Of a DNA stretch of 22,358 nucleotides, positions 310-12,685 are shown one piece after another. The notes under the pieces were generated by a model that saw only the letters and a program-made list of their open reading frames with translations, was not told the origin of the DNA and searched no databases. Position 1 is the first letter of the stretch. The number at the start of each line of letters is the position of its first letter. The stretch comes from a virus (Duplodnaviria; Heunggongvirae; Uroviricota; Caudoviricetes), in the IMG/VR virus record IMGVR_UViG_2541047718_000017; one strand, given 5' to 3'. Position numbers and translations under genes: made by a program.

Positions 310-1410
310 TCATTCCATTTCGAAATCATCAATCCTCACTTCAAGCTCCAGACTGGTTGTAAAACCGTTATCCGGGCTGACGGTATGTGTCAGAGTCGTA
401 ATGGTCCATTCCGCATCATCTATCGGCTGTTTAAAACCACTGACCTTCACAGGCATTTCCGTGTAGAGATCTGCCCGCCCTTCTGCCAGTTGTAGCGAAA
501 ATGACGCAACGCCGCGTTGCAGGCGTTCCCACTGCATTTTCGCCGCTCGTTCGGCGTTGCTCCGGTTGGCATAAGTGCGATTAAGTACCAGCACGTTTTC
601 ATCCGTACCCACCAGGTAATCGCCCTGCTTCGCTTCTGGCTCTTTCTTCTGCTTCTTAGTTCTGCGCTTACGCTTCACCGTGGTGCTTTCTTTCTTCGCA
701 GGTTCGCGGGTATGCAACCAGCTGGCAATTACGCCCGTGTAGGCTCCGCGATCTGCCAGGGTAAATCGGTGACTGTCGCCGTCCTTGCGTGTGATAGTGA
801 TCACTGGCAGAGGTTTACCAGTGGCGCTTTTGCCCTGCCCCTGCCGGATGAATAACAGATTGCCATTTTTCACCGACGCGATGGCACCGTACTGTCGCGC
901 CAGCCGCATCAGAAAACTGCCGTCACTCTCATTAGTCTGGTCTATATGCTCCACGGGCTTATCCGACAGGTCTTTACCCAGTGCCATCTTCAGCTTGTGC
1001 CGCGCGGCTATTTCCTTCACCACTTCCCCGACGGTGGTCTTATGCCACGATTTTTCACGGCGGGTATTCAGCGTTTCCCGAAAATCAGCACTTCGCGCCC
1101 GGATAGTCAGGCGGTCCGGTGCGCCAGTGTGTTCAATCTCGTCCACTGTGAATGCCCCTTTCGGGAAAAGCGGCTGCCCCTTCCAGCCCAGCGCCAGCGT
1201 AATAACCGCACCACGGCGCGGCAGCACGATTTTTCCGTCAGCGTCATCCAGCTCCAGATCAAGCTGGTCCGCTTCAAAGCCCCGGTTATCCGTCAGCGTC
1301 AAACTCATCAGGCGGTTATCCAGCACAGTGGTGATATCCCTGCCCTCAATACTGATGCTGAATGCGGGAGTTTTGTTGCCTTTGTTAAGCAGTTCAGAGC
1401 TGAAATTCAC
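310..1410 (-). CDS. D: tail protein D (late control gene D product)
   Basis: 366-aa ORF; position after U and before ogr; translation resembles P2 gpD (lysine-rich central linker KRKRRTKKQKKEPE). Exact start uncertain. Confidence 0.88.
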   Translation of the reverse strand: MNFSSELLNKGNKTPAFSISIEGRDITTVLDNRLMSLTLTDNRGFEADQLDLELDDADGKIVLPRRGAVITLALGWKGQPLFPKGAFTVDEIEHTGAPDRLTIRARSADFRETLNTRREKSWHKTTVGEVVKEIAARHKLKMALGKDLSDKPVEHIDQTNESDGSFLMRLARQYGAIASVKNGNLLFIRQGQGKSATGKPLPVITITRKDGDSHRFTLADRGAYTGVIASWLHTREPAKKESTTVKRKRRTKKQKKEPEAKQGDYLVGTDENVLVLNRTYANRSNAERAAKMQWERLQRGVASFSLQLAEGRADLYTEMPVKVSGFKQPIDDAEWTITTLTHTVSPDNGFTTSLELEVRIDDFEME

Positions 1411-1892
1411 GACAGCAGCCCTCCCACCGTTTTACTGATATCGCTTAAGGCAGACGTTGCCGTGTCCTGCAGATTATTCAGTTGCGCACTGAGATCACCG
1501 AACATATCGGACAGGGATTCATCCACTCGTTTGAGCGACAGGGTGAACTCAATCCGGCGCGGCATACCGTCGCGGAAAAACTCCGTTTTAGTCTGATTCA
1601 GTCCCTCAATCACATACATGCCGTAAATCGTGCCGCTGCCTTCAATCAGGGGCCATGCTTTCCCCTGTTCTGCCATCTGCTCCAGTGCCAGCAACGACAG
1701 CCTGCCGCCTGTTATTTCCGGCATAAGAACACCGGAAAGCGTCAGCATGTCGTTTTCCGGTCCCAGAAACTGCGTGGACGGACGTCGGTTTACCCGACTG
1801 TTTGCCGCATGTCGCCAGCTGCGTTGATACTGCAGTTCCTGATACGGAACGGTGCGCAGCATAAACACGTACAATCCCAGCACCATCATCAT
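1407..1892 (-). CDS. U: tail protein U
   Basis: 161-aa ORF directly downstream of T with overlapping stop/start; N-terminus resembles P2 gpU. Confidence 0.88.
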   Translation of the reverse strand: MMMVLGLYVFMLRTVPYQELQYQRSWRHAANSRVNRRPSTQFLGPENDMLTLSGVLMPEITGGRLSLLALEQMAEQGKAWPLIEGSGTIYGMYVIEGLNQTKTEFFRDGMPRRIEFTLSLKRVDESLSDMFGDLSAQLNNLQDTATSALSDISKTVGGLLS

Positions 1893-4800
1893 GCGTCGTA
1901 TCCCCCCTGATCGCTGTAGTTACTCCTGGCTTTTGCCTTCAGCCTGCGTTCACGTTCATCAAGCTGGCGTGCCACCTCCCGCGCAATATCCTGCGCACTT
2001 TGTCCTGGCTGCGTCTGAATGATGATCTGCGTCGGTGCCTCAATCCGTTGAACGAGCGGCACAGTGGCTGCGCGACTCACAATTGCTTCTCCACCTTTCG
2101 CGGGAAGTGCCAAAGGGTGCAACGGTGGAAGCTCTGCTGGCGCGGCAGCAACGCCCATCATTCCGGCAACAACGGCAGCCAGTGCAGCTGTATTTCTCCG
2201 GCTGGTCACATTTGCCGGGCCGTTAACAATTTCCGGCCCGTTTTCACCGACGATGCCAAACTGCCCTCGCGGGATATACCCGCCGCTGTCATACATCCCC
2301 GCAAAGCCATATCCCCATGATGGAAAACCACCCGATGGCATCATCACTTTACCGTCTGCATTCACCGTCGCAGGTTGCTGACGCGTCACGCTTTCCGGCA
2401 GTTTTGCCTTTGCGGCCTCTTTACTGACAATGCCGAGCTTCTCCAGCAACCAGGAAACGCCGGATTTCAGGGAGTCCAGCGGATGCATGACCATATTCAG
2501 CCCTTCCGCCAGTGCCTCCCCGAATCGCCGCCCCATTGCCGCTGCACTCTGCAGTTCGGCAGAGGTCGACTTAACGGGCGTCAGCAGATCAGTAAACCAG
2601 CCCCACAGCGCCTGTACTTTGTCGCCAATCCACTGAAACACAGGCTTAAGTGGTTCGAATGCAGCACTGATGGGACCTGCCGCCGCTTTGAATCCTTCCA
2701 CCACGCCACCGAGAAATGCGGTGATGGGTTGCCAGTATTTCCAGACAACCAGCGCCACGCCCGCCAGTGCAGTAACCACAAGACCTATCGGACTGAGCAG
2801 AGCACCTAACAGACCAGATATGGCATACAGGGCAACGCGCAGCATCGCCAGCGGACCAGATGCAAGCACACGAAGCACCGCGCCTGCGGCAGCCAGTCCA
2901 CCGCGCAGTACCGCCAGAGGATTCATAAACATCACAGCAACAGCACGTAAACCGGATAATCCAGACCGCAAAAGTGCAACCGGCGCACCTGCTACAGTTT
3001 TAAGGACATTTCCCGTCAGTGATGCCGTGCGGCGCAAAGACGACAACGGCGCAGTAAGTAAACCTGCGGCGTTGCCCGATGAAGCAAGCCCGCGTCGCAG
3101 CAGTGCCAGTGGTGCGCCAGCCAGCCAGGACAACGCGCTGCTGGTTCGAGTTACTGCTGCCGTAACGGAAGATAACGTTTTGATACCCAGCACAGAGAAT
3201 CCCAGACGGATCACTGCCAGCGGCCCCAGCACTGCAGCCAGCGCCACCGCTAAGGTGCCGAGGCCGACGGTAACCGCAGCCACAACAGCCGATGCTTTCA
3301 TCAGTGTGCCTGTCAGTTCCGGGTTAGCTTCCACCCAGCGACGCAACGCCCCCGTGACGCTTTTCACCGTGTACAGAATATCCATCAGCGGCTGGCGCAG
3401 CGTTTCGCCCAGGCTGCTGAAGGTGTTCTGCGCTCCGGTTTTGACCAGCAACCACTGCGCAGAAAGTGAATCCTTGTTAATGTCGGATTCTTTCTGCATG
3501 GAGCCGAGCGCATCATTGCCCGCTGTCAGTTTTAACTGACGCTGCAGTTCCGGCAGGTTGTTTGCCAGTTTCGCCGCGTCATCGCCAAACTCTTTACCAA
3601 ACAACATAGTCATGGCAGACAGGCGCTTGTCCTGCGGCAGCGCGTTTACCTTCTCCAGCACGCGCTGGATGGTTCCCATCGCATCCTTCGTCATCTGCTT
3701 TTCAATCACTTCAGGATTGAGTTTCAGCAGATTCATCCCTTCAAAGAAACTTTTGCTTTGCATGGTGGCAATGGACAATTCACACACCATCGCGTTTGCT
3801 GCACTGGCTGCAACCTCTGGCGCAGCGCCCAGTGTCAGGAAGGTGGAACCCAGCGCCGCCGCTTTACGATAATCCAGACGGTCAGCCACACCGCCCAGAC
3901 GTTGCATCACATCAATGATGTCTGCCCCTTTCGACATGGCGTTATCATCCAGATAGTTCAGCGCATCACCGAGCTGTTCAATATTGCGGGTGGGGATTTT
4001 GTAGAGCTGGGCGATTTTCCCCAGACTTTCTGACAGTTCATCCGCTGGCAGCTCAAAGGCTGTTGCCGCCTTTGCTGCCGTACTGGCGAAGGCCAGCAGG
4101 TCACGTTTCTGATCTTCCCAACTGTCGTCAGGGTTTGCGACGTTCATGCGCGCGCCACCTTCAACCAGTGCAGCGAAATCCACAGCACCGTTTTCCATCG
4201 GCAACTGTTCGCTGGCAGCCTTGATGGCATCCTGCATTTCATAAAAACGTGCAGTGCGGTTGCCATTATCGTCACGCAGACCATTGACCTGCTTTGCCAC
4301 ACCTTTCATGGCATCTTCCATGCTGGTATAGCTTTTTACTGCCGCCATCACTGGTGCGCCCATTGCCAGCCCTGCAGCCGTGGTGGTGGCTCCGGCACCT
4401 GCAATACGATCACGCACCTCCAGCGAACGGGCATAACTGGCACGCGCTGCATTCATCCTGCGCTGAGCTTCCCCCAGTCGCTTCAGCCGCGCCTCCTGTT
4501 TCGAAAGTTCCTGGTTATAACGTGATGTTTCACGGGCTAAACGGGCAGTTGCTCCCGCATCGTCTTTCGCAGAAATTCCCGCCCGGTACAGTTCAGCACG
4601 CACAAGCGCCGTCTGCTGCTGCAGCTTTTTCTGGCGTTCTTCCAGGCGCTGAACAGCCAGCCGTTGACGGCCCAGAGCAACAACCTGACGTTGCGAAGGC
4701 GGCCCCATCGCTCCCAGTTCCTGACTGAGCAAATTTGCACGCTGGCGGGCATAGTTCAGCCTGTCGCCTAATTTCTGATTTTCTGCCTGCAGCTTTCGGA

Positions 4801-4966
4801 AGCTGTCCAGACTGCTCCCGGCCTGATCAAGCTGCTTTATTGCATCGCGGGATTTTTTGACAGCAGCAGCCAGTTCTCTTGAACTGGCCTGCGCAGATCG
4901 AAATGGGCGGGTGAGCTTGTCAACCGCATTAAGAATGACCTGCAGACGCAGGTTGTTATCACTCAT
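1889..4966 (-). CDS. T: tail tape measure protein
   Basis: 1025-aa ORF; coiled-coil-rich N-terminal third, Gly/Ala/Leu-rich repeated hydrophobic segments in the middle, position between E/E' and U; typical of P2 gpT. Confidence 0.92.
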   Translation of the reverse strand: MSDNNLRLQVILNAVDKLTRPFRSAQASSRELAAAVKKSRDAIKQLDQAGSSLDSFRKLQAENQKLGDRLNYARQRANLLSQELGAMGPPSQRQVVALGRQRLAVQRLEERQKKLQQQTALVRAELYRAGISAKDDAGATARLARETSRYNQELSKQEARLKRLGEAQRRMNAARASYARSLEVRDRIAGAGATTTAAGLAMGAPVMAAVKSYTSMEDAMKGVAKQVNGLRDDNGNRTARFYEMQDAIKAASEQLPMENGAVDFAALVEGGARMNVANPDDSWEDQKRDLLAFASTAAKAATAFELPADELSESLGKIAQLYKIPTRNIEQLGDALNYLDDNAMSKGADIIDVMQRLGGVADRLDYRKAAALGSTFLTLGAAPEVAASAANAMVCELSIATMQSKSFFEGMNLLKLNPEVIEKQMTKDAMGTIQRVLEKVNALPQDKRLSAMTMLFGKEFGDDAAKLANNLPELQRQLKLTAGNDALGSMQKESDINKDSLSAQWLLVKTGAQNTFSSLGETLRQPLMDILYTVKSVTGALRRWVEANPELTGTLMKASAVVAAVTVGLGTLAVALAAVLGPLAVIRLGFSVLGIKTLSSVTAAVTRTSSALSWLAGAPLALLRRGLASSGNAAGLLTAPLSSLRRTASLTGNVLKTVAGAPVALLRSGLSGLRAVAVMFMNPLAVLRGGLAAAGAVLRVLASGPLAMLRVALYAISGLLGALLSPIGLVVTALAGVALVVWKYWQPITAFLGGVVEGFKAAAGPISAAFEPLKPVFQWIGDKVQALWGWFTDLLTPVKSTSAELQSAAAMGRRFGEALAEGLNMVMHPLDSLKSGVSWLLEKLGIVSKEAAKAKLPESVTRQQPATVNADGKVMMPSGGFPSWGYGFAGMYDSGGYIPRGQFGIVGENGPEIVNGPANVTSRRNTAALAAVVAGMMGVAAAPAELPPLHPLALPAKGGEAIVSRAATVPLVQRIEAPTQIIIQTQPGQSAQDIAREVARQLDERERRLKAKARSNYSDQGGYDA

Positions 4967-5395
4967 CGTTGGCCCCGCTTCTCTGAATCGCTTTATACCG
5001 CCATTCCAGCACTTCGGTCAGCGGCATAACGTCAGTAACGGATGGCGGCCAGTGAAAAATGGTGGCGATATCTGCCACCAGATCGTCAACCGTCAGGCTG
5101 TCGGTAAACCGGCAAGCACCGACTTCTTCAACAAAAAAGTGACAACCTCAACCGACATGGCAGTGAGATCTGCCGGGTCCATCTCTGCAATTTCCTGTGC
5201 AGTCAGTGCCGGACTGGAGATGCGGGGGAGCACGGTCATCATCGCGTTTACATCCATATCCATAATGGCCTGCAGGCGTGTACCGCGCAGCGCACCGGAC
5301 TGCGGTTTACGCAGCACAATTTCGGTGATTTCTGTTTTACCGCGCTTGATGGGGGTATCCAGTTGAATGGTCTTTTCAGTCTGCTTATCGCTCAT
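4959..5395 (-). CDS. E': tail assembly chaperone E+E' (programmed -1 frameshift product, about 145 aa)
   Basis: T_TTT_TTG heptamer on the minus strand at 5138..5132 in the E frame (ACT TTT TTG); the -1 frame stays open for 57 codons to a TGA at 4961..4959, overlapping the T start (4966). Manually translated. Confidence 0.72.
5093..5395 (-). CDS. E: tail assembly chaperone E (zero-frame product)
   Basis: 100-aa ORF between FII and T; the slippery heptamer lies near its 3' end. Confidence 0.88.
   Translation of the reverse strand: MSDKQTEKTIQLDTPIKRGKTEITEIVLRKPQSGALRGTRLQAIMDMDVNAMMTVLPRISSPALTAQEIAEMDPADLTAMSVEVVTFLLKKSVLAGLPTA
5132..5138 (-). other. -1 ribosomal frameshift slippery heptamer TTTTTTG (E to E')
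   Basis: Plus strand reads caaaaaa; X_XXY_YYZ register matches the E reading frame. Confidence 0.7.
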
Positions 5396-5974: not shown

Positions 5975-6195
5975 TTACGCGCTGACCTGGCTGGCGAAAT
6001 TAACCAGGTACTGATCGGTGATGCGCTGACGCAGCATCAGGTTTTCAAGTGGCGGCACTGGCGTGTAGTCGTAGTCGATGGTGAGTTTTCCGGCTTTCAG
6101 CGTGTCTTTGTCGTTCACCGACTCATCCAGCCAGCAATCACCACCAATGAGATAGCCCTGACTGACCAGGCTGCGCATTTTGGCGCGGATACCTT
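5975..6195 (-). pseudogene. FI: tail sheath protein FI, detached C-terminal fragment (about 71 codons)
   Basis: ...[71 protein letters not shown] matches the P2 FI C-terminus; no FI-like sequence upstream of the junction at about 6194; the track ORF extends to 6337 only because no stop intervenes. Confidence 0.85.
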
Positions 6196-6207
6196 GGTTT
6201 GGGAGAA
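6182..6207 (+). other. hybrid invertase crossover site (junction A): FI-derived half GGCGCGGATACC, core TT, tail-fibre half GGTTTGGGAGAA
   Basis: 12-2-12 architecture; right half is the exact inverted repeat of 8045-8056; left half is sheath coding sequence. Confidence 0.7.
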
Positions 6208-6696
6208 GGCTCTGCATTACCGGTTGGGGTGCCTGTTCCGTGGCCTTCAGCCACTCCGCCAACAGGCTGGCTGAAATGCAACGGTGCCGCTTTTTCTGCT
6301 GAAGAATACCCGGAACTGGCAAAGGCTTATCCGACAAATAAATTGCCTGATTTACGTGGTGAGTTTATTCGTGGCTGGGATGACGGGCGTGGTATTGATG
6401 CTGTACGTGCCTTGCTAAGTCTTCAGAATGGAGGAGTGGAATCACACACCCACCAAGGGCAGCTCTTCAGAGTTAGTGATTATCGTACAAAAGAAATACC
6501 AGCATCAGAAGTTATGGGAAGAGGATATATTGCAAGCCTGACGCCGGGTGCTGATAGCCCACTTGATTTTGATGATTATTCTGTATCTTCTAATCCAAAT
6601 GGATATTTTGTCGGGAATCAGAGAACAACAGCATATGGGATAAATGAAACCCGTCCACGGAATATTGCATTTAACTATATCGTGAGGGCTGCCTGA
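6196..6696 (+). CDS. tail fibre variable C-terminal exon (Hv), currently not joined to the H constant region
   Basis: Begins GGT TTG GGA GAA (GLGE) immediately after the crossover core; translation ...[42 protein letters not shown]...NYIVRAA is a typical enterobacterial side-tail-fibre C-terminal receptor-binding domain; upstream in-frame stop at about 6163. Confidence 0.8.
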
Positions 6697-7298
6697 TGAA
6701 TAAAGCCGTATTAAATAACGAACTCATTGCCATAAAAGCGGGAGACATTACCATTTATAATTATGATGGTGAAACGCGGGAATATATTTCCACATCAACT
6801 GAATATCTTGCGGTTGGCGTCGGTATCCCGGCATGTTCTTGTTTAGATGCACCAGTTACACATAAAGCTGGTTATGCAATCTGCCGTTCTGCAGATTTTA
6901 ACTCATGGGAATATGTGCCAGACCATCGCGGTGAAATCATCTATAGCACCGAAACAGGAGAATCGAAAGAAATCACAGCTCCGGGTGATTACCCTGAAAA
7001 TACAACCACTATCGCCCCGTTAACGCCATATGATAAATGGGATGGTGAGAAATGGGTGACGGATACTGAGGCACAGCATAGTGCCGCAGTAGACGCGGCA
7101 GAAGCACAGCGCCAGTCACTGATTGATGCAGCAATGGCTTCCATTAGTCTGATTCAGCTGAAATTACAGGCCGGACGGAAGTTGACGCAGGCAGAAACAA
7201 CCCGACTTAACGCCGTGCTGGATTACATTGACGCGGTGGCGGCAACAGATACCAGCACCGCGCCGGATGTCATCTGGCCTGAACTGCCGGAGGCGTAG
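6696..7298 (+). CDS. tail fibre assembly chaperone (Tfa / Mu U-like) for Hv
   Basis: 200-aa ORF coupled to the Hv stop; C-terminal ...DYIDAVAATDTSTAPDVIWPELPEA motif typical of Tfa proteins. Confidence 0.85.
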   Translation: MNKAVLNNELIAIKAGDITIYNYDGETREYISTSTEYLAVGVGIPACSCLDAPVTHKAGYAICRSADFNSWEYVPDHRGEIIYSTETGESKEITAPGDYPENTTTIAPLTPYDKWDGEKWVTDTEAQHSAAVDAAEAQRQSLIDAAMASISLIQLKLQAGRKLTQAETTRLNAVLDYIDAVAATDTSTAPDVIWPELPEA

Positions 7299-7707
7299 GC
7301 CATTCAATATCTGGCGCACCGGTAGTATCGACTAGCTCCAGTGCGTCCAGATAATCCAGCCACGAATTATATTGCGCCAGTTCCTCGCTTTTCAGACGAC
7401 CAATAGCGGCTTTACCGGGCCATTGTTTACTGTTCATGTATTCGTTGGCCTGATTAAGCAATAATTGCCTTTCTGATTCTGCCTGTTGAATAAGTTCTTC
7501 ATGTGATGGTGGAGGTATTAGTGCCCATGTGGGTAATCCATTTTTTCCTGCAACACGAATTTTGTCATCTGGAGGCGTATTGATTGCAAATTCATTATAA
7601 ACATCATCACTGACAGCCAGAGCATCATCTGGCCATGAATTTGCATTAATGTAATCATCCTTAAGTGCAGGATTCACAAAAATGTTTAAAGATGGACTAT
7701 AAAACAT
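7270..7707 (-). CDS. alternative tail fibre assembly chaperone (Tfa', Mu U'-like)
   Basis: 145-aa ORF convergent with and overlapping tfa by 29 bp; C-terminal ...DYLDALELVDTTGAPDIEWPTPPA motif. Confidence 0.85.
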   Translation of the reverse strand: MFYSPSLNIFVNPALKDDYINANSWPDDALAVSDDVYNEFAINTPPDDKIRVAGKNGLPTWALIPPPSHEELIQQAESERQLLLNQANEYMNSKQWPGKAAIGRLKSEELAQYNSWLDYLDALELVDTTGAPDIEWPTPPAVQAR

Positions 7708-7708
7708 A

Positions 7709-8056
7709 TTACACCCCTATAGCGATATAACGACCTAATACAGCGTTTACAGCAGTCGCTATGCTTGAAAAACCGCGGAACTGATTTGATGTAATTGCAG
7801 AAGCCGACAGGATTCCTGCGCCTGAAGGTGTATGCCCCACATGACTAACTATCATTCCATAACATGCTGACGGAAAGGCAAAAGGAAAATCGTTAAGATA
7901 TCCGGCATCTTCACCACCAGACCCACCAAATCTCGCCTGCCCCCACTGAATAATCAGTGTTCTCCGGGAACCTGAAATAATTAACGGGATCGTTACATAC
8001 CCATTCAGGCCAATGACACCCGATGCAGTGCCAGCCAGAGATAATTCTCCCAAACC
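7709..8056 (-). CDS. alternative tail fibre variable C-terminal exon (Hv')
   Basis: Coding starts at the crossover core with the same GGT TTG GGA GAA (GLGE) as Hv; followed by tfa'. Codons upstream of 8056 in the track ORF (MMPVSCYLCIFLNV) lie in the outer half-site and are probably not coding. Confidence 0.78.
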   Translation of the reverse strand, partial: GLGELSLAGTASGVIGLNGYVTIPLIISGSRRTLIIQWGQARFGGSGGEDAGYLNDFPFAFPSACYGMIVSHVGHTPSGAGILSASAITSNQFRGFSSIATAVNAVLGRYIAIGV

Positions 8057-8070
8057 AACGTTTAAGAAAA
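8045..8070 (+). other. invertase crossover site (gix/hix/pix-like): TTCTCCCAAACC AA CGTTTAAGAAAA
   Basis: 12-2-12 near-dyad resembling the remembered hix/gix consensus (TTCTnnAAAACC-NN-GGTTT...); inner half is a perfect inverted repeat of 6196-6207; lies 56 bp upstream of the invertase start. Confidence 0.75.
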
Positions 8071-8125
8071 TGCAGAGGTAACAGCTAACTGGCATCATCT
8101 CCGGTTTTTATTCAGGGGGATGATC

Positions 8126-8692
8126 ATGCTTATTGGCTATGTACGCGTGTCAACAAATGACCAGAACACCGATTTGCAACGTAATGCACTGAACTGCGCG
8201 GGATGTGAGCAGATTTTTGAGGACAAAATCAGTGGCACTAAGTCCGACAGACCGGGGCTGAAAAAACTACTCAGGACACTATCGGCAGGAGACACGCTGG
8301 TTGTCTGGAAGCTGGACAGGTTGGGGCGCAGTATGCGGCATCTTGTTACGCTGATAGAAGAGTTGCGCCAGCGTGGTGTGAATTTCAGAAGCCTGACTGA
8401 CAGTATTGATACCAGTACCCCAATGGGCCGTTTCTTTTTTCATGTCATGGGTGCCCTGGCTGAAATGGAACGCGAACTGATAGTTGAACGTACCAGGGCA
8501 GGGCTGGCTGCAGCTCGTGCCAAAGGCAGAGTAGGTGGACGCCGTCCTAAGTTGACCACCGAACAGTGGGCACAGATTGGGCGTTTACTCGAGGCCGGAG
8601 AATCAAGACAGCGTATTGCACTGATTTTTGATGTAGGCGTTTCTACCATTTATAGAAAATTTCCGGCAAATAAGATCAATGAATCCCCCTGA
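8126..8692 (+). CDS. serine-recombinase DNA invertase (Gin/Pin/Cin/Hin family)
   Basis: MLIGYVRVSTNDQNTDLQRNAL...VVWKLDRLGRSMRHL...MGRFFFHVMGALAEMERELIVERT... matches Gin/Pin-type invertases from memory, including the catalytic Ser in YVRVST and a C-terminal HTH. Start taken at the internal ATG (track start 8120). Confidence 0.92.
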   Translation: MLIGYVRVSTNDQNTDLQRNALNCAGCEQIFEDKISGTKSDRPGLKKLLRTLSAGDTLVVWKLDRLGRSMRHLVTLIEELRQRGVNFRSLTDSIDTSTPMGRFFFHVMGALAEMERELIVERTRAGLAAARAKGRVGGRRPKLTTEQWAQIGRLLEAGESRQRIALIFDVGVSTIYRKFPANKINESP

Positions 8693-8740
8693 ATCAGCAT
8701 TATGTTGATTATCCCTGCAAGCAGACAAATACCGTTATTT

Positions 8741-8758
8741 TGTGTGAATAACGACACA
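8741..8758 (+). promoter_or_regulatory. Ogr-box (TGT-N12-ACA) of late promoter P_F upstream of FI
   Basis: TGTgtgaataacgacACA with 5-bp dyad arms, in the 143-bp gap between invertase and FI start, about 85 bp upstream of the FI ATG (8835). Confidence 0.6.
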
Positions 8759-8834
8759 ACTGCGCTTAGCTGTTTGTCAGGCACAATCACTTCAACATAG
8801 GGCGAAGCCTAATCCAATCAGGAGGTTCGCCACT

Positions 8835-9797
8835 ATGGCTCAGGATTACCACCACGGGGTGCGCGTTGTTGAAGTCAACGAAGGTACCCGATCTATTACC
8901 ACGGTGAGCACCGCCATCGTGGGTATGGTCTGCACGGGCGATGATGCCGATGCAAAAATGTTTCCTCTTAATAAACCCGTGCTGATCACTGATGTGCTGA
9001 CTGCCAGCGGTAAAGCGGGTGAGTCAGGTACTCTGGCCCGTTCGCTGGATGCCATCGCTGACCAGGCAAAACCCGTGACCATTGTTGTGCGTGTGCCGCA
9101 GGGTGAAACGGAAGACGAAACCACGACCAATATCATCGGCGCAGTGACTGCTGAAGGTAAAAAAACAGGTATGAAAGCCCTGTTATCTGCCCAGTCACAG
9201 CTCGGCGTTAAACCGCGCATTCTCGGCGTGCCAGGCCACGACACCAAGGCGGTAGCTACTGAGTTGCTGAGCGTGGCGCAAAGCCTGCGTGGATTTGCTT
9301 ACCTGTCAGCGTATGGCTGCAAGACAGTGCAGGAGGCGATCACTTACCGCGAAAACTTCAGCCAGCGCGAAGGGATGCTGATCTGGCCTGACTTTACTGG
9401 CTGGGACACGGTGCTGAATGCCGAAGCAACGGCATATGCCACCGCCCGTGCGCTTGGTCTGCGCGCCAAAATTGACGAGCAGACCGGATGGCACAAAAGC
9501 CTGTCCAACGTGGGCGTGAACGGTGTCACCGGAATTTCTGCAGATGTGTTCTGGGATCTGCAGGACCCGGCAACCGATGCAGGTCTGCTGAACCAGAACG
9601 ACGTCACCACGCTTGTGCGTAAAGACGGTTTCCGCTTCTGGGGTTCCCGCTGCCTGAGTGATGACCCGCTCTTTGCCTTCGAAAACTACACCCGCACGGC
9701 GCAGGTGCTGATGGACACGATGGCAGAAGCACACATGTGGGCGGTGGATAAACCGCTTAACCCGTCGCTGGCCCGCGACATTATCGAAGGTATGTGA
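8835..9797 (+). pseudogene. FI: tail sheath protein FI, N-terminal 319 codons, truncated at the inversion junction
   Basis: MAQDYHHGVRVVEVNEGTRSITTVSTAIVGMVCTGDDADAKMFPLNKPVLITDV... is near-collinear with the P2 FI N-terminus; reading frame ends ...RDIIEG-M-stop two codons after the crossover core. Confidence 0.88.
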
Positions 9798-9800
9798 GAA
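9775..9800 (+). other. hybrid invertase crossover site (junction B): FI-derived half GCGACATTATCG, core AA, H-derived half GGTATGTGAGAA
   Basis: H-side half (TTCTCACATACC on the minus strand) matches the Hv/Hv' half-site TTCTCCCAAACC at 10 of 12 positions; the other half is sheath coding sequence. Confidence 0.7.
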
Positions 9801-10836
9801 GACCAGCTACATCCTTTCCACTCAAATTGGTAAGCGTATTGTCCAGCGGTTGTTTACCTGCCAGCGCATTAAGCATTGTCGTGGCAAAGTTCGGATCATT
9901 CCCCAGTGCCGCCGCCAGTTCGTTCAGTGTATCCAGTGCAGCAGGTGCAGAACCCACCATTCCTGCAATCGCCGATTTCACAAAAGCCGTAGTGGCAATC
10001 TGTGTATTGTTGACCGACTGCGCCGCCGTGGGGGCTGTTGGCGTTCCGGTGAGTGCCGGACTCGACAACGGTGCTTTTAGTGCCAGCGCATTGTTAATGG
10101 TGGTACTGAAATTCGGATCATTGTTAATGGCTGCGGCTATTTCTTTCAGCGTGTCCAGCGTGGCTGGCGCACCATTAATAAGGGCCGTCAGTGCCGCCTG
10201 TACAAACGCAGTGGTCGCAACCTGCGTGGTATTATTCCCCGCCGCTGGCGTTGGCGCTTTGGGGGTTCCGGTAAATGTCGGGCTGGCTTTTGGCGCGTAC
10301 TGTGAATGCGGGTCCGGTGCGGCAAGATGTTTTGCCATCTGATCATCCGCGTACACCTTCAGCTCCAGTGCCTTGTCATCCACATACTTGCGGGTTGCCA
10401 GCACTACAGCAGGGTCGATTTTCAGGGTGATATTGTCCGTGCTGCTGGTAATCAGCACCATGCGCACGGTCTGAGTGCGCCCGCTACCTTCAGCCAGTTG
10501 CGGCTTATAGCTTTCCGGGCAGTTGCCCACGGCAATCAATGCACCTGACTCATCAAACAGGCCCACTTCACGTATCCACCAACCGCCCTCGTTTTCAGGG
10601 ATCACCTGTTCGGCAATAATCTGGCTGCTGTTCTGCGGGTCGATATAAAGCATATTCAGCGCAGCCCGGCGTTTCTCATTTACCAGTGCCGTCTGCTTTG
10701 CGTCCGGCGTTGGCAATACTCCACCGCCATCGCCCACCGCCATATGGGTAATTTTTAGCGGCACACCGAGCGCGGCGGCGCTGGCAAGTTTCGCCGCGCC
10801 AATATCCGTCAGCAGGGTATAAAATTTTGTGCTCAT
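9781..10836 (-). CDS. H: tail fibre protein H, N-terminal constant region (Mu Sc-equivalent), ending 2 codons after the crossover core
   Basis: MSTKFYTLLTDIGAAKLA...MAVGDGGG...ESYKPQLAEGSGRTQT... and the repeated ...TQIATTAFV... motifs match the P2 gpH N-terminal part; the ORF ends ...LTYL-R-stop at the junction with antisense FI. Confidence 0.88.
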   Translation of the reverse strand: MSTKFYTLLTDIGAAKLASAAALGVPLKITHMAVGDGGGVLPTPDAKQTALVNEKRRAALNMLYIDPQNSSQIIAEQVIPENEGGWWIREVGLFDESGALIAVGNCPESYKPQLAEGSGRTQTVRMVLITSSTDNITLKIDPAVVLATRKYVDDKALELKVYADDQMAKHLAAPDPHSQYAPKASPTFTGTPKAPTPAAGNNTTQVATTAFVQAALTALINGAPATLDTLKEIAAAINNDPNFSTTINNALALKAPLSSPALTGTPTAPTAAQSVNNTQIATTAFVKSAIAGMVGSAPAALDTLNELAAALGNDPNFATTMLNALAGKQPLDNTLTNLSGKDVAGLLTYLR

Positions 10837-11438: not shown

Positions 11439-12339
11439 CCGTTCCTCCGTTGGTTACGCTCCACTGCGTACATGATGCCGCCTGTGTTTTGTTCAGGACC
11501 ACATCCGCCAGAGGAGAAGCCAGCTCCACACGCTGCACCCCCTCAACATGCAGGGCGGCAAAGATGGCGCTACGGCGAATATCCCGACCAAGACGCGTCT
11601 GACTGGCGATGTACTTCTGCAGGCTGGCTTTTGCCGCTGCCATTACCGGCTCTGCTTCCGGTCCAGGATAGAGAAAAATGGTGGCTTCCACGCGATACGG
11701 GATGATTTCTGCGCTGCGAACCGTAAGACGGTCAGCCACCGGGCGGACGTTCTCACTGTTCAGAGCTTTTTCCACCACGTCCAGCAGGTCTTTTTCTGCA
11801 GTTCCATCGCCTTCGCGGCTAAGGACAGTCAGCACCACCTCTGCAGGTGCCGGGCTGGTTGCACTGGCATCCGCCACCCGACCGTCGGCGCTTCGGGCAT
11901 GAAATTCATAAGCTGCAGTTGGCCCCGCAACAGAAAGCCCTTCAAAGGCTGCAGGCACACGCAGGCGCAACGCTTCATCGCTTTCCATCACAGCTGCAAC
12001 GGGCGGCACAGCATCATTATCAGCAGGCGTCACCGTCAGGCGTGTCACGTTGTAGTTGGCAGCGAGCTGGTCAAGATCGCCGCCCATCGCGTAAGCCACC
12101 ATCACCGCCTGCGCGGCTTCGTTAATGCGCTGGCGCAGAAGCAACTCACGGTAAGCGTTCTCCTGCAACAATTTAGTGGCGGGTTCAGATTCCAGTTCCA
12201 GCGTGCGGATCACTGCTTCCTGCTCATCTTTCGGATGAAGCGCCACAAATTCTGCCTTGCGTTCGGCAAGCAGCGTCTCAAAGTCCGGCACATCCACAAT
12301 CTGCGGTGCAGGCAACTGCGAAAGGTCAATCACTGCCAT
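11431..12339 (-). CDS. J: baseplate assembly protein J
   Basis: Translation from MAVIDLSQLPAPQIVDVPDFETLLAERKAEF... is collinear with P2 gpJ; start taken at the internal ATG (track ORF begins at 12378). Confidence 0.9.
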   Translation of the reverse strand: MAVIDLSQLPAPQIVDVPDFETLLAERKAEFVALHPKDEQEAVIRTLELESEPATKLLQENAYRELLLRQRINEAAQAVMVAYAMGGDLDQLAANYNVTRLTVTPADNDAVPPVAAVMESDEALRLRVPAAFEGLSVAGPTAAYEFHARSADGRVADASATSPAPAEVVLTVLSREGDGTAEKDLLDVVEKALNSENVRPVADRLTVRSAEIIPYRVEATIFLYPGPEAEPVMAAAKASLQKYIASQTRLGRDIRRSAIFAALHVEGVQRVELASPLADVVLNKTQAASCTQWSVTNGGTDE

Positions 12340-12685
12340 TCTCTGCTCCTGTTGATACGGAAAGGGACACAGGCACACCGTTATTCCGCCGCCCGGTCAG
12401 CTCCACCACCATTGAACCGTCAAAATTGCTGTTGATGGTGATGGAATCCAGCGTCAACCGTGGCTCCCAGCGACTCAGCGCCACATACACTGCCGACATG
12501 ACCTGCAGGCGTAATGCCGGATTTTGTGGCTGATCTATCAGTGCCGACAGCAGGGAACCATATTCCCGGCGGGCAATACGGCTACCCTGCGGTGTCAGCA
12601 GAATGTCCCGCACCGACTGGCGCAGATGATCAATATCAGTAATGACTTTGCCGCTGGTATTGTTCATCCCGCTATAAAGCGTCAT
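12326..12685 (-). CDS. W: baseplate wedge protein W (T4 gp25-like)
   Basis: 119-aa ORF; ...DILLTPQGSRIARREYGSLL...DQPQNPALRLQ... matches P2 gpW. Confidence 0.9.
   Translation of the reverse strand: MTLYSGMNNTSGKVITDIDHLRQSVRDILLTPQGSRIARREYGSLLSALIDQPQNPALRLQVMSAVYVALSRWEPRLTLDSITINSNFDGSMVVELTGRRNNGVPVSLSVSTGAENGSD

Follow-up and report, generated by a model that had tools for sequence, protein, structure and literature searches.

Tape measure proteins set the length of phage tails, and recent work on T4, lambda and T5 shows that they also provide the path of the DNA through the cell envelope, and that they are targeted by defences such as SNIPE and T4 Imm. The tape measures of siphophages contain 11-residue repeats in variable number (Belcaid et al. 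2011, PMC3271669), and in TP901-1, where the repeats are of 11/18 residues, the removal of units shortens the tail (Mahony et al. 2016, PMC5099701). In a 2026 survey, the tape measures of myoviruses are characterised by no tandem repeats (PMC13585406). T4 gp29 (TMP_TM), TP901-1 (hydrophobic regions 1 and 2) and lambda gpH also have a hydrophobic stretch in the middle-to-C-terminal part, and such stretches are thought to enter the inner membrane or to line the DNA conduit after expulsion (bioRxiv 10.64898/2026.03.06.709160; PMC12617516; PMC5099701). Here, we describe an array of about eight proline-started units in the hydrophobic section of the tape measure gene T of IMG/VR record IMGVR_UViG_2541047718_000017, a 22,358-nucleotide (nt) stretch of viral DNA (hereafter the window) from a P2-like Escherichia coli prophage.

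The array behaves like the known variable-number tape measure repeats, from which it differs both in its unit and in its place within the protein. As in the siphophages, the units stand in tandem inside the tape measure, their number varies between related phages, their period is close to whole helical turns (11 residues make about three turns, and the 21.5 residues observed here make six), and one relative carries a duplication of an 11-amino-acid (aa) half-unit. The differences lie in the unit and in its setting. The significant lags are 43, 64, 86, 32 and 21/22 residues rather than 11 or 18, with lag 11 outside the top lags; the units begin with Pro and have Pro and Arg as their markers in place of Trp or Phe; the array is located in a hydrophobic, acid-free section, whereas the siphophage repeats belong to the soluble ruler part; and the phage has a contractile tail and is related to P2. 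Unlike the hydrophobic segments of T4, TP901-1 and lambda, the segment in the window is reiterated, has regularly spaced Arg residues and amphipathic middle units, and is polymorphic in copy number. The gene, the array and its flanking segments are as follows, with window coordinates first.

1889 to 4966, minus strand: gene T, tail tape measure protein (gpT type) of 1025 aa, from the open reading frame and family models.
3224 to 3322, minus strand (aa 549-581): transmembrane-like segment of strong hydrophobicity that directly precedes the array, from Kyte-Doolittle hydropathy.
2729 to 3223, minus strand (aa 582-746): repeat array, eight units of 19, 18, 21, 22, 21, 22, 21 and 21 residues with the core P-L-A-x-L-R-x-G-L, from motif positions and spacing.
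3167 to 3223, minus strand (aa 582-600): unit 1, PLAVIRLGFSVLGIKTLSS, from the motif.
3113 to 3166, minus strand (aa 601-618): unit 2, degenerate, VTAAVTRTSSALSWLAGA, filling the 37-aa gap between motifs.
3050 to 3112, minus strand (aa 619-639): unit 3, PLALLRRGLASSGNAAGLLTA, from the motif.
2984 to 3049, minus strand (aa 640-661): unit 4, PLSSLRRTASLTGNVLKTVAGA, from the motif.
2921 to 2983, minus strand (aa 662-682): unit 5, PVALLRSGLSGLRAVAVMFMN, from the motif.
2852 to 2917, minus strand (coding sequence (CDS) nt 2050-2115, aa 684-705): polymorphic 66 nt, essentially unit 6, from junction analysis.
2792 to 2854, minus strand (aa 705-725): unit 7, PLAMLRVALYAISGLLGALLS, from the motif; Kyte-Doolittle value 1.65.
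2729 to 2791, minus strand (aa 726-746): unit 8, PIGLVVTALAGVALVVWKYWQ, transmembrane-like helix found family-wide, also in P2 gpT-type proteins, from motif and conservation.
2567 to 2728, minus strand (aa 747-800): conserved module after the array, made of degenerate Pro-started units, PITAFLGGVVEGFKAAAG / PISAAFE / PLK / PVFQWIGDKVQALWGWFTDLLT, from near-invariant residues; common to P2-type representatives.

The motif P[LVI][AGS]x[LIV][RV] occurs seven times in T (at aa 582, 619, 640, 662, 683, 705 and 726), with spacings of 37, 21, 22, 21, 22 and 21 residues, while composition-preserving shuffles of aa 549-800 contain 0.08 copies on average and never more than 2 (20,000 shuffles). When aa 575-800 are autocorrelated with BLOSUM62, lag 43 scores highest (z = 7.8; range 7.4-7.8 overall), a score never attained by the shuffles, followed by lags 64 (z = 5.3), 86 (4.6), 32 (4.2) and 21/22 (3.8 and 3.3), where the family-wise 99th percentile of the shuffles is about 3.8. 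The remainder of the T protein has no autocorrelation peak of comparable size. The repeat is thus real, with a unit of 21/22 residues and a super-period of 43. An earlier note on this DNA, made by a model from the letters alone, had pointed to window positions 2750-3320 (aa 549-739 of T) and proposed 8-10 hydrophobic repeats of roughly 14 residues. The four peptides it quoted are all present (GAPLALLRRGLASS, GAPVALLRSGLSGL, NPLAVLRGGLAAAG and GPLAMLRVALYAISG), and the periodic array that it saw is borne out, but a period of about 14 is rejected, as lag 14 is below significance in the BLOSUM62 autocorrelation (z = 1.8-2.9) and the real spacing is 21/22; the ~14 residues are the conserved core of the longer unit. 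Its copy number was about right, with seven clear units and one degenerate unit (aa 601-618) making up eight, and with 2-3 more degenerate Pro-started units past the array (aa 747, 765 and 775). Every unit begins with Pro, and the residue before this Pro is Gly, Ala, Asn or Ser; Arg is typical at position 6 of most units, and the array occupies 16% of the protein.

The composition of the array is strongly biased (Leu 21%, Ala 18%, Val 11%, Gly 11%, Ser 10%, with only 3 Trp and 2 Phe within its 165 residues), and the recurrence of the motif could in principle be a by-product of low complexity in Leu, Ala, Gly and Val, the length differences among relatives then being assembly errors or the decay of dead prophages. 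We regard this explanation as very improbable. Shuffles that keep the composition reproduce neither the motif count nor the lag-43 score, and the motif positions are conserved among close homologues while others vary: Pro1, Leu5 and Arg6 of the units are conserved at 0.86-1.0, whereas the other positions drift.

At the level of DNA, the array is not a head-to-tail tandem repeat or a slippage tract. Tandem Repeats Finder returns nothing (0 rows at score 30), the units are 44-65% identical to one another in DNA and 24-52% in protein, and the longest exact repeat inside the array is 8 nt. The DNA of the units has only 20-34-nt stretches in common, with ~75% identity and 66-nt spacing, which correspond to the motif-coding core. 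Given this divergence, the description of the window allele as slippage-prone in the usual sense, as the note had it, is not supported, and the order of the duplications is unreadable from the unit-to-unit identities. Because there is no DNA-level tandem repeat, an array of this kind would be missed by repeat finders run on DNA or by searches for high-identity protein repeats.

Within the family, the unit is the quantum of natural length change, and the breakpoints lie at the conserved motif-coding core. Three lengths of T stand out in the 120 closest homologues, 1003, 1025 and 1047 aa, and a comparison of T length and repeat number among relatives, of the kind the earlier note had proposed, finds these alleles to differ by whole units. 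Global alignment to the window protein of 116 of the 120 homologues (the four with divergent or truncated N-termini were excluded) yields 27 distinct internal insertions or deletions (indels) of at least 5 aa, and 17/27 overlap the array, which makes up 16% of T (binomial p = 5e-8). Many of these are whole units, so that the suspicion of a length-variation site proves correct: we observe +22 aa, -22 aa at two places, -37 (19+18), -64 (21+22+21), -85 (four units) and about -169 (eight units). A 22-aa deletion near aa 642 (unit 4) is found in the homologues P0117 and P0119, and P0054 has a half-unit duplication of +11 aa; apart from this duplication, the 11-aa half-unit can be seen only within unit 6. 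In three further homologues (P0059, P0142 and P0144), the middle of the array is swapped for unrelated sequence.

The junctions of four alleles can be followed at the nucleotide level. In the 1047-aa allele (relative L001), the 66 nt of CDS nt 2050-2115 (window 2852-2917) are perfectly duplicated in tandem, and the 1003-aa allele (L002, whose protein cluster has 1764 members) is missing precisely these 66 nt, with the junction CCN/CTGGCG (the slash marking the breakpoint) and 13/16 nt common across the motif core. In the 988-aa allele, 111 nt are gone (units 1 and 2, aa 583-619) between CCG/CTGGCA and CCA/CTGGCA, while in the 961-aa allele 192 nt (three units) are deleted, in register within the R-x-G/L part. 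Three junctions lie exactly at the coding core between Pro and Leu-Ala. That the unit is the quantum of length change follows from these near-identical alleles differing by whole units with junctions in register, and such events have the appearance of rare recombination or slippage at microhomologies of 6-13 nt. Among complete RefSeq E. coli genomes, the normal junction between units 5 and 6 is present in 616 and the one-unit-deletion junction in 18; in the one deletion genome inspected (CP106924), the T CDS is 3012 nt long and the neighbouring sheath, tube, E, E', U, D and ogr genes are intact.

This polymorphism also bears on whether the length differences are artefactual. In favour of that view are the many variants that are single clusters from short-read assemblies, the duplication allele that is missing from complete genomes, and the window prophage itself, which is disrupted. 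Against it stand the 18 closed genomes that carry the one-unit deletion (the tail operon being intact in the single genome inspected), the cluster of 1764 members that shares this deletion, and the in-register junctions at the motif. Chance or artefact is thus ruled out as the source of the repeat and, for the most part, of the polymorphism. The 1003-, 1025- and 1047-aa proteins represent natural, near-isogenic alleles one 22-residue unit apart in a contractile-tailed phage, and this set suits two questions, namely whether the hydrophobic section is part of the ruler and whether it is relevant to DNA entry. The array also shows that repeat-mediated length change is possible in a myophage tape measure with no detectable DNA-level tandem repeat. 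In other respects, this is ordinary phage structural-gene biology, in which a length change of such proteins is neatly documented.

The assignment of T itself, on which the earlier note was right, follows from family models and operon position. The protein scores above the cut-offs of PF10145 (aa 246-457, 65.9 bits; cut-off 33.2) and TIGR01760 (aa 200-567, 309 bits; cut-off 28.8), it matches phrog_28 with E = 3.6e-197, and its gene lies 3' of the tube gene, between gpE/E' and gpU/gpD, as judged by Pfam on neighbouring open reading frames. On these grounds, the reading frame at 1889-4966 is classified as a P2-type tail tape measure protein. With the tape measures of P2 gpT and the TP901 family it has in common the family itself (PF10145, TIGR01760, PHROG 28), the operon position (tube, gpE, E', T, gpU, gpD) and the overall plan: an N-terminal coiled coil is followed by the helical core of TIGR01760, then by a hydrophobic section and the conserved '...KYW[QE]P...' module, and the GENGPE motif stands in the C-terminal part. 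The main difference is in the hydrophobic section: the P2 gpT-type representative (815 aa) has three plain hydrophobic segments there, while the window T has eight units, and about 113/210 of its extra residues lie in this section. In a stacked comparison, the P2 gpT-type representative (P0171, 815 aa) has no P-L-A-x-L-R units, and an intermediate relative (P0149, 942 aa) has two.

An exhaustive, profile-free search through 1.84 billion representatives with aa 575-800 retrieves only 480 proteins (E up to 0.001), and among the matches listed we observe tape-measure-sized proteins or fragments aligned at the equivalent position. The last unit and the segment that follows it form a family-wide module, P..LVV.A......KYW[QE] / P..AF.GGV..G..AA / P.. 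/ PLK / P.F.W......W.WF, in which P726, W745, A750, F751, G754, G758, P765, L794 and P797 hardly vary across 85 sequences, even at identities as low as about 20%. The '...WKYW[QE]P I.AF..G...GF.A..PI' stretch of this module (aa 726-800, window 2567-2791) is the most conserved part of this tape measure family. A Pfam scan of the array alone finds no family at E up to 10, and the conserved module likewise has no Pfam model. A sequence search of the PDB gives two marginal matches, the Listeria monocin tape measure FtbJ (9J1K_J, E = 0.0027) and the tape measure of cyanophage A-1(L) (8KEA_G, E = 0.028), both of which mainly cover the conserved downstream module and not the array. In another lineage, a 108-112-residue block of the conserved module is triplicated instead, and in distant relatives the spacing between consecutive Pro residues peaks at 18, 21 and 22. 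Because P2 gpT-type proteins are without the units and distant relatives have this spacing of Pro, the array is a lineage-specific expansion in a P2-type sub-lineage, within a section that is Pro-punctuated family-wide. The array is flanked by the N-terminal transmembrane-like segment and the 'P..LVV.A......KYW[QE]P' module, and among close homologues it is 79% identical versus about 95% in the flanking core and conserved module.

We observe a regular helical phase in the array. The Fourier spectrum of its hydrophobicity has a single sharp peak at 3.58 residues with a power of 8.8 (shuffle 95th percentile 6.5; 1/500 shuffles reached 8.95, which was the maximum), and since 3.58 residues equal 21.5/6, each unit would span six helical turns and all units would show the same face. 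In helical projection, Arg and small residues gather in one ~80-degree sector. The N-terminal half of T has a different, heptad-like hydrophobicity periodicity of 3.48. Over aa 551-756 (206 aa), there is not one Asp or Glu versus 14 Arg/Lys. Hydropathy on the simple Kyte-Doolittle scale reaches the transmembrane level (19-residue window, at least 1.6) at aa 555-596, where it is at its maximum of 2.38, and at aa 684-745. AlphaFold predicts T to be mostly alpha-helical, with helices over most of aa 5-550 and 726-843; the predicted local distance difference test score (pLDDT) is 70-94 for aa 30-550, and in the AlphaFold2 model of full-length T (85-sequence alignment) it is about 90 for a confident helical core at aa 205-550. 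A fragment model (aa 540-830, 30 sequences) has helices interrupted exactly at P683, P705, P726 and P747, which we count as weak support for one unit forming one helix.

The helical phase is also what a pure ruler or spacer would be expected to have. Under this alternative, the array would be one long, nearly straight alpha-helix (43 residues making 12 turns) that either adds length in the tube only, or uses its Arg stripe for docking to the gpE/gpE+E' chaperones or to the electronegative tube lumen, with no role at the membrane. The hydrophobicity periodicity of 3.58 is coherent over 165 residues, the composition is basic and acid-free, the central units are too polar for transmembrane helices, the 11-aa half-unit indel recalls the 11-residue ruler repeats of siphophages (PMC3271669; PMC5099701), and the TP901-1 authors tie hydrophobic stretches to chaperone binding (PMC5099701). 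A continuous helix is, however, a poor fit to a Pro that follows Gly/Asn/Ser every 21-22 residues; the array lies between two transmembrane-like segments and adjoins the conserved hydrophobic module of the family; and P2 gpT-type proteins manage without it. We consider the ruler or spacer to be unlikely, although it is the main rival.

The explanation that we favour, with a probability of roughly 0.55, is that the array is an old, degenerate tandem array of about eight Pro-started, 21/22-residue helix modules in the membrane-active hydrophobic section of a P2-family T, and that gain and loss of units alter the protein and probably the tail length. Three published systems are the basis for its functional part. 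In T4, a transmembrane segment of the tape measure remains at the end of the tube and makes up a conduit in lipid, and this tape measure is also what the exclusion protein Imm binds (bioRxiv 10.64898/2026.03.06.709160); lambda gpH* forms a trans-envelope channel as a hexamer (PMC12617516); and in TP901-1, deletions within the repeats and within a hydrophobic region lead to proportionally shorter tails, the wild-type tail being 118 nm for about 810 length-determining residues (PMC5099701). Because of this work on T4, lambda and TP901-1, it is plausible that the array sets tail length, and the units probably belong to the membrane-active hydrophobic section of T.

A sequence of steps can be proposed on this basis. 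Each unit would be one amphipathic-to-hydrophobic alpha-helix of ~19 residues, begun by a Gly/Asn/Ser-Pro break, and at 21.5 residues, or six helical turns, every unit would present the same narrow face of Arg and small residues. During assembly, the hydrophobic section may be kept soluble by gpE/gpE+E', and in the virion the helices would be buried inside the tube lumen with the rest of that section. Upon sheath contraction, T would be expelled, and the array section, accompanied by the conserved module, would then insert into, or line, a channel through the inner membrane. Units would be gained and lost by rare recombination or slippage between the short P-L-A-x-L-R coding cores. By analogy with other tape measures, each such change of 21-22 residues would correspond to about 3 nm, roughly one tube ring, and would probably alter the tail length by that amount.

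Several observations weigh against this explanation. As to the unit, some indels in the array are not unit multiples (28, 50, 75, 101, 103 and 134 aa), and 10/27 indel events fall elsewhere in T. As to the polymorphism, a 40-nt probe for the duplication junction finds it in 0 complete RefSeq E. coli genomes, the 1047-aa allele being documented only on 24 NCBI contigs, none of them from the complete-RefSeq set; only full-length proteins were retrieved, and hence the in-frame nature of the changes is a selection artefact of the search; and some single-cluster variants come from short-read assemblies or possibly from decaying prophages. As to the membrane, the earlier suggestion of hydrophobic, membrane-interacting repeats is only partly supported, since transmembrane-like hydrophobicity is reached by the two flanking stretches but not by the central units (aa 601-683), which are amphipathic, have Kyte-Doolittle values of 0.26-1.1, below the level of a classical transmembrane helix, and carry 1-2 Arg each, plus one Lys in the unit at aa 640. 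As to the helices, the full-length AlphaFold2 model has aa 556-739 as coil with a pLDDT of about 30, and the fragment model has a pLDDT of 45-60 with helices continuous through P619 and P662. Finally, the sheath and fibre genes of the window prophage are split, as described below, and this copy may not be under selection now.

The divergence of the array among close homologues could also reflect diversification under selection, a view that is compatible with the other explanations. The array would then meet inner-membrane factors of the host, superinfection-exclusion proteins or membrane-bound defences, and unit gain and loss, cassette swap and fast substitution would be selected as escape. 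Consistent with this, close homologues differ most in the array and in the N-terminal 200 aa (79% and 78% versus about 95%), and the middle of the array is unrelated sequence in the three swapped homologues. Mutants that escape SNIPE, a membrane nuclease, map to a tape measure, among them one 7-aa deletion and one 7-aa duplication (PMC13190303), and the binding of the T4 tape measure by Imm (bioRxiv 10.64898/2026.03.06.709160) fits as well. The variability of the array could equally be relaxed constraint on a spacer. We know of no defence or host factor for P2-type tape measures, which counts against the proposal, and overall we find it quite unlikely. More speculative again is the idea that the Pro/Arg units of 21.5 residues are pore-lining or membrane-docking elements of a P2-type inner-membrane channel, whose copy number and sequence would act as an evolvable 'dial', retuning channel length or geometry or escaping membrane-located exclusion or defence proteins while the conserved core stays undisturbed; we offer it as a long shot.

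Three other parts of T are variable. The N-terminal coiled coil (aa 1-200; window 4367-4966) has 78% identity among close homologues, as variable as the array, and occurs in at least 2 alternative versions (for example, P0041 versus P0002), which suggests mosaic exchange on the basis of the alignments. A second indel hot spot is found at aa about 895-930 (window about 2177-2284), where close relatives have 114 aa (12 clusters), 78 aa or 31 aa inserted, and where the AlphaFold model is of low confidence. Just past the conserved module (aa 800-844, window about 2435-2569), the homologue P0039 (1070 aa) has a perfect 45-aa tandem duplication of STSAELQSAAAMGRRFGEALAEGLNMVMHPLDSLKSGVSWLLEKL, and thus T tolerates duplications outside the array too.

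The genes around T are those of a P2-type tail operon, and the called genes have an identical order around T in the relatives L001-L006.

5093 to 5395, minus strand: tail assembly chaperone gpE (PF10109), directly upstream of T, from Pfam.
1407 to 1892, minus strand: gpU (PF06995), directly downstream of T, from Pfam.
310 to 1410: gpD, from Pfam on neighbouring open reading frames.

The tape measure gene of Escherichia phage 500465-1 (Peduoviridae, genus Wadgaonvirus) has 99.1% nt identity to that of the window. When compared to this phage, the window contains an inverted segment of 3.6 kilobases (about 6195-9787; junctions at about 6189-6195 and 9787-9793), which includes tail-fibre C-terminal cassettes, two fibre-assembly genes, a DNA invertase (8120-8692) and the initial 320 codons of the gene for the sheath. 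Two genes are split: that of the sheath into a C-terminal part (5975-6337, minus strand) and an N-terminal part (8835-9797, plus strand), and that of the fibre, whose N-terminal part is at 9781-10836 (minus strand). Both junctions have the 7-base-pair core ATACCTT in common, and the ends of the inversion are a normal 26-base-pair invertase crossover site in the fibre gene, TTCTCACATACC-TT-GGTTTGGGAGAA, and a quasi-site inside the sheath gene. The inversion junction occurs in only 2/5426 complete E. coli genomes (AR_0013, CP032204; and OZ546943). This has the look of a tail-inactivating, possibly reversible inversion that the invertase carried out at a secondary site. With its sheath and fibre genes split in this way, the prophage copy in the window is probably not producing tails in its present state. 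Finally, related prophages adjoin ssrA, the gene for transfer-messenger RNA (tmRNA), and smpB (L006, CP106924, at 6982-7040; L005 at 12154-12636), and these relatives suggest the tmRNA gene as the probable attachment site of the phage group.

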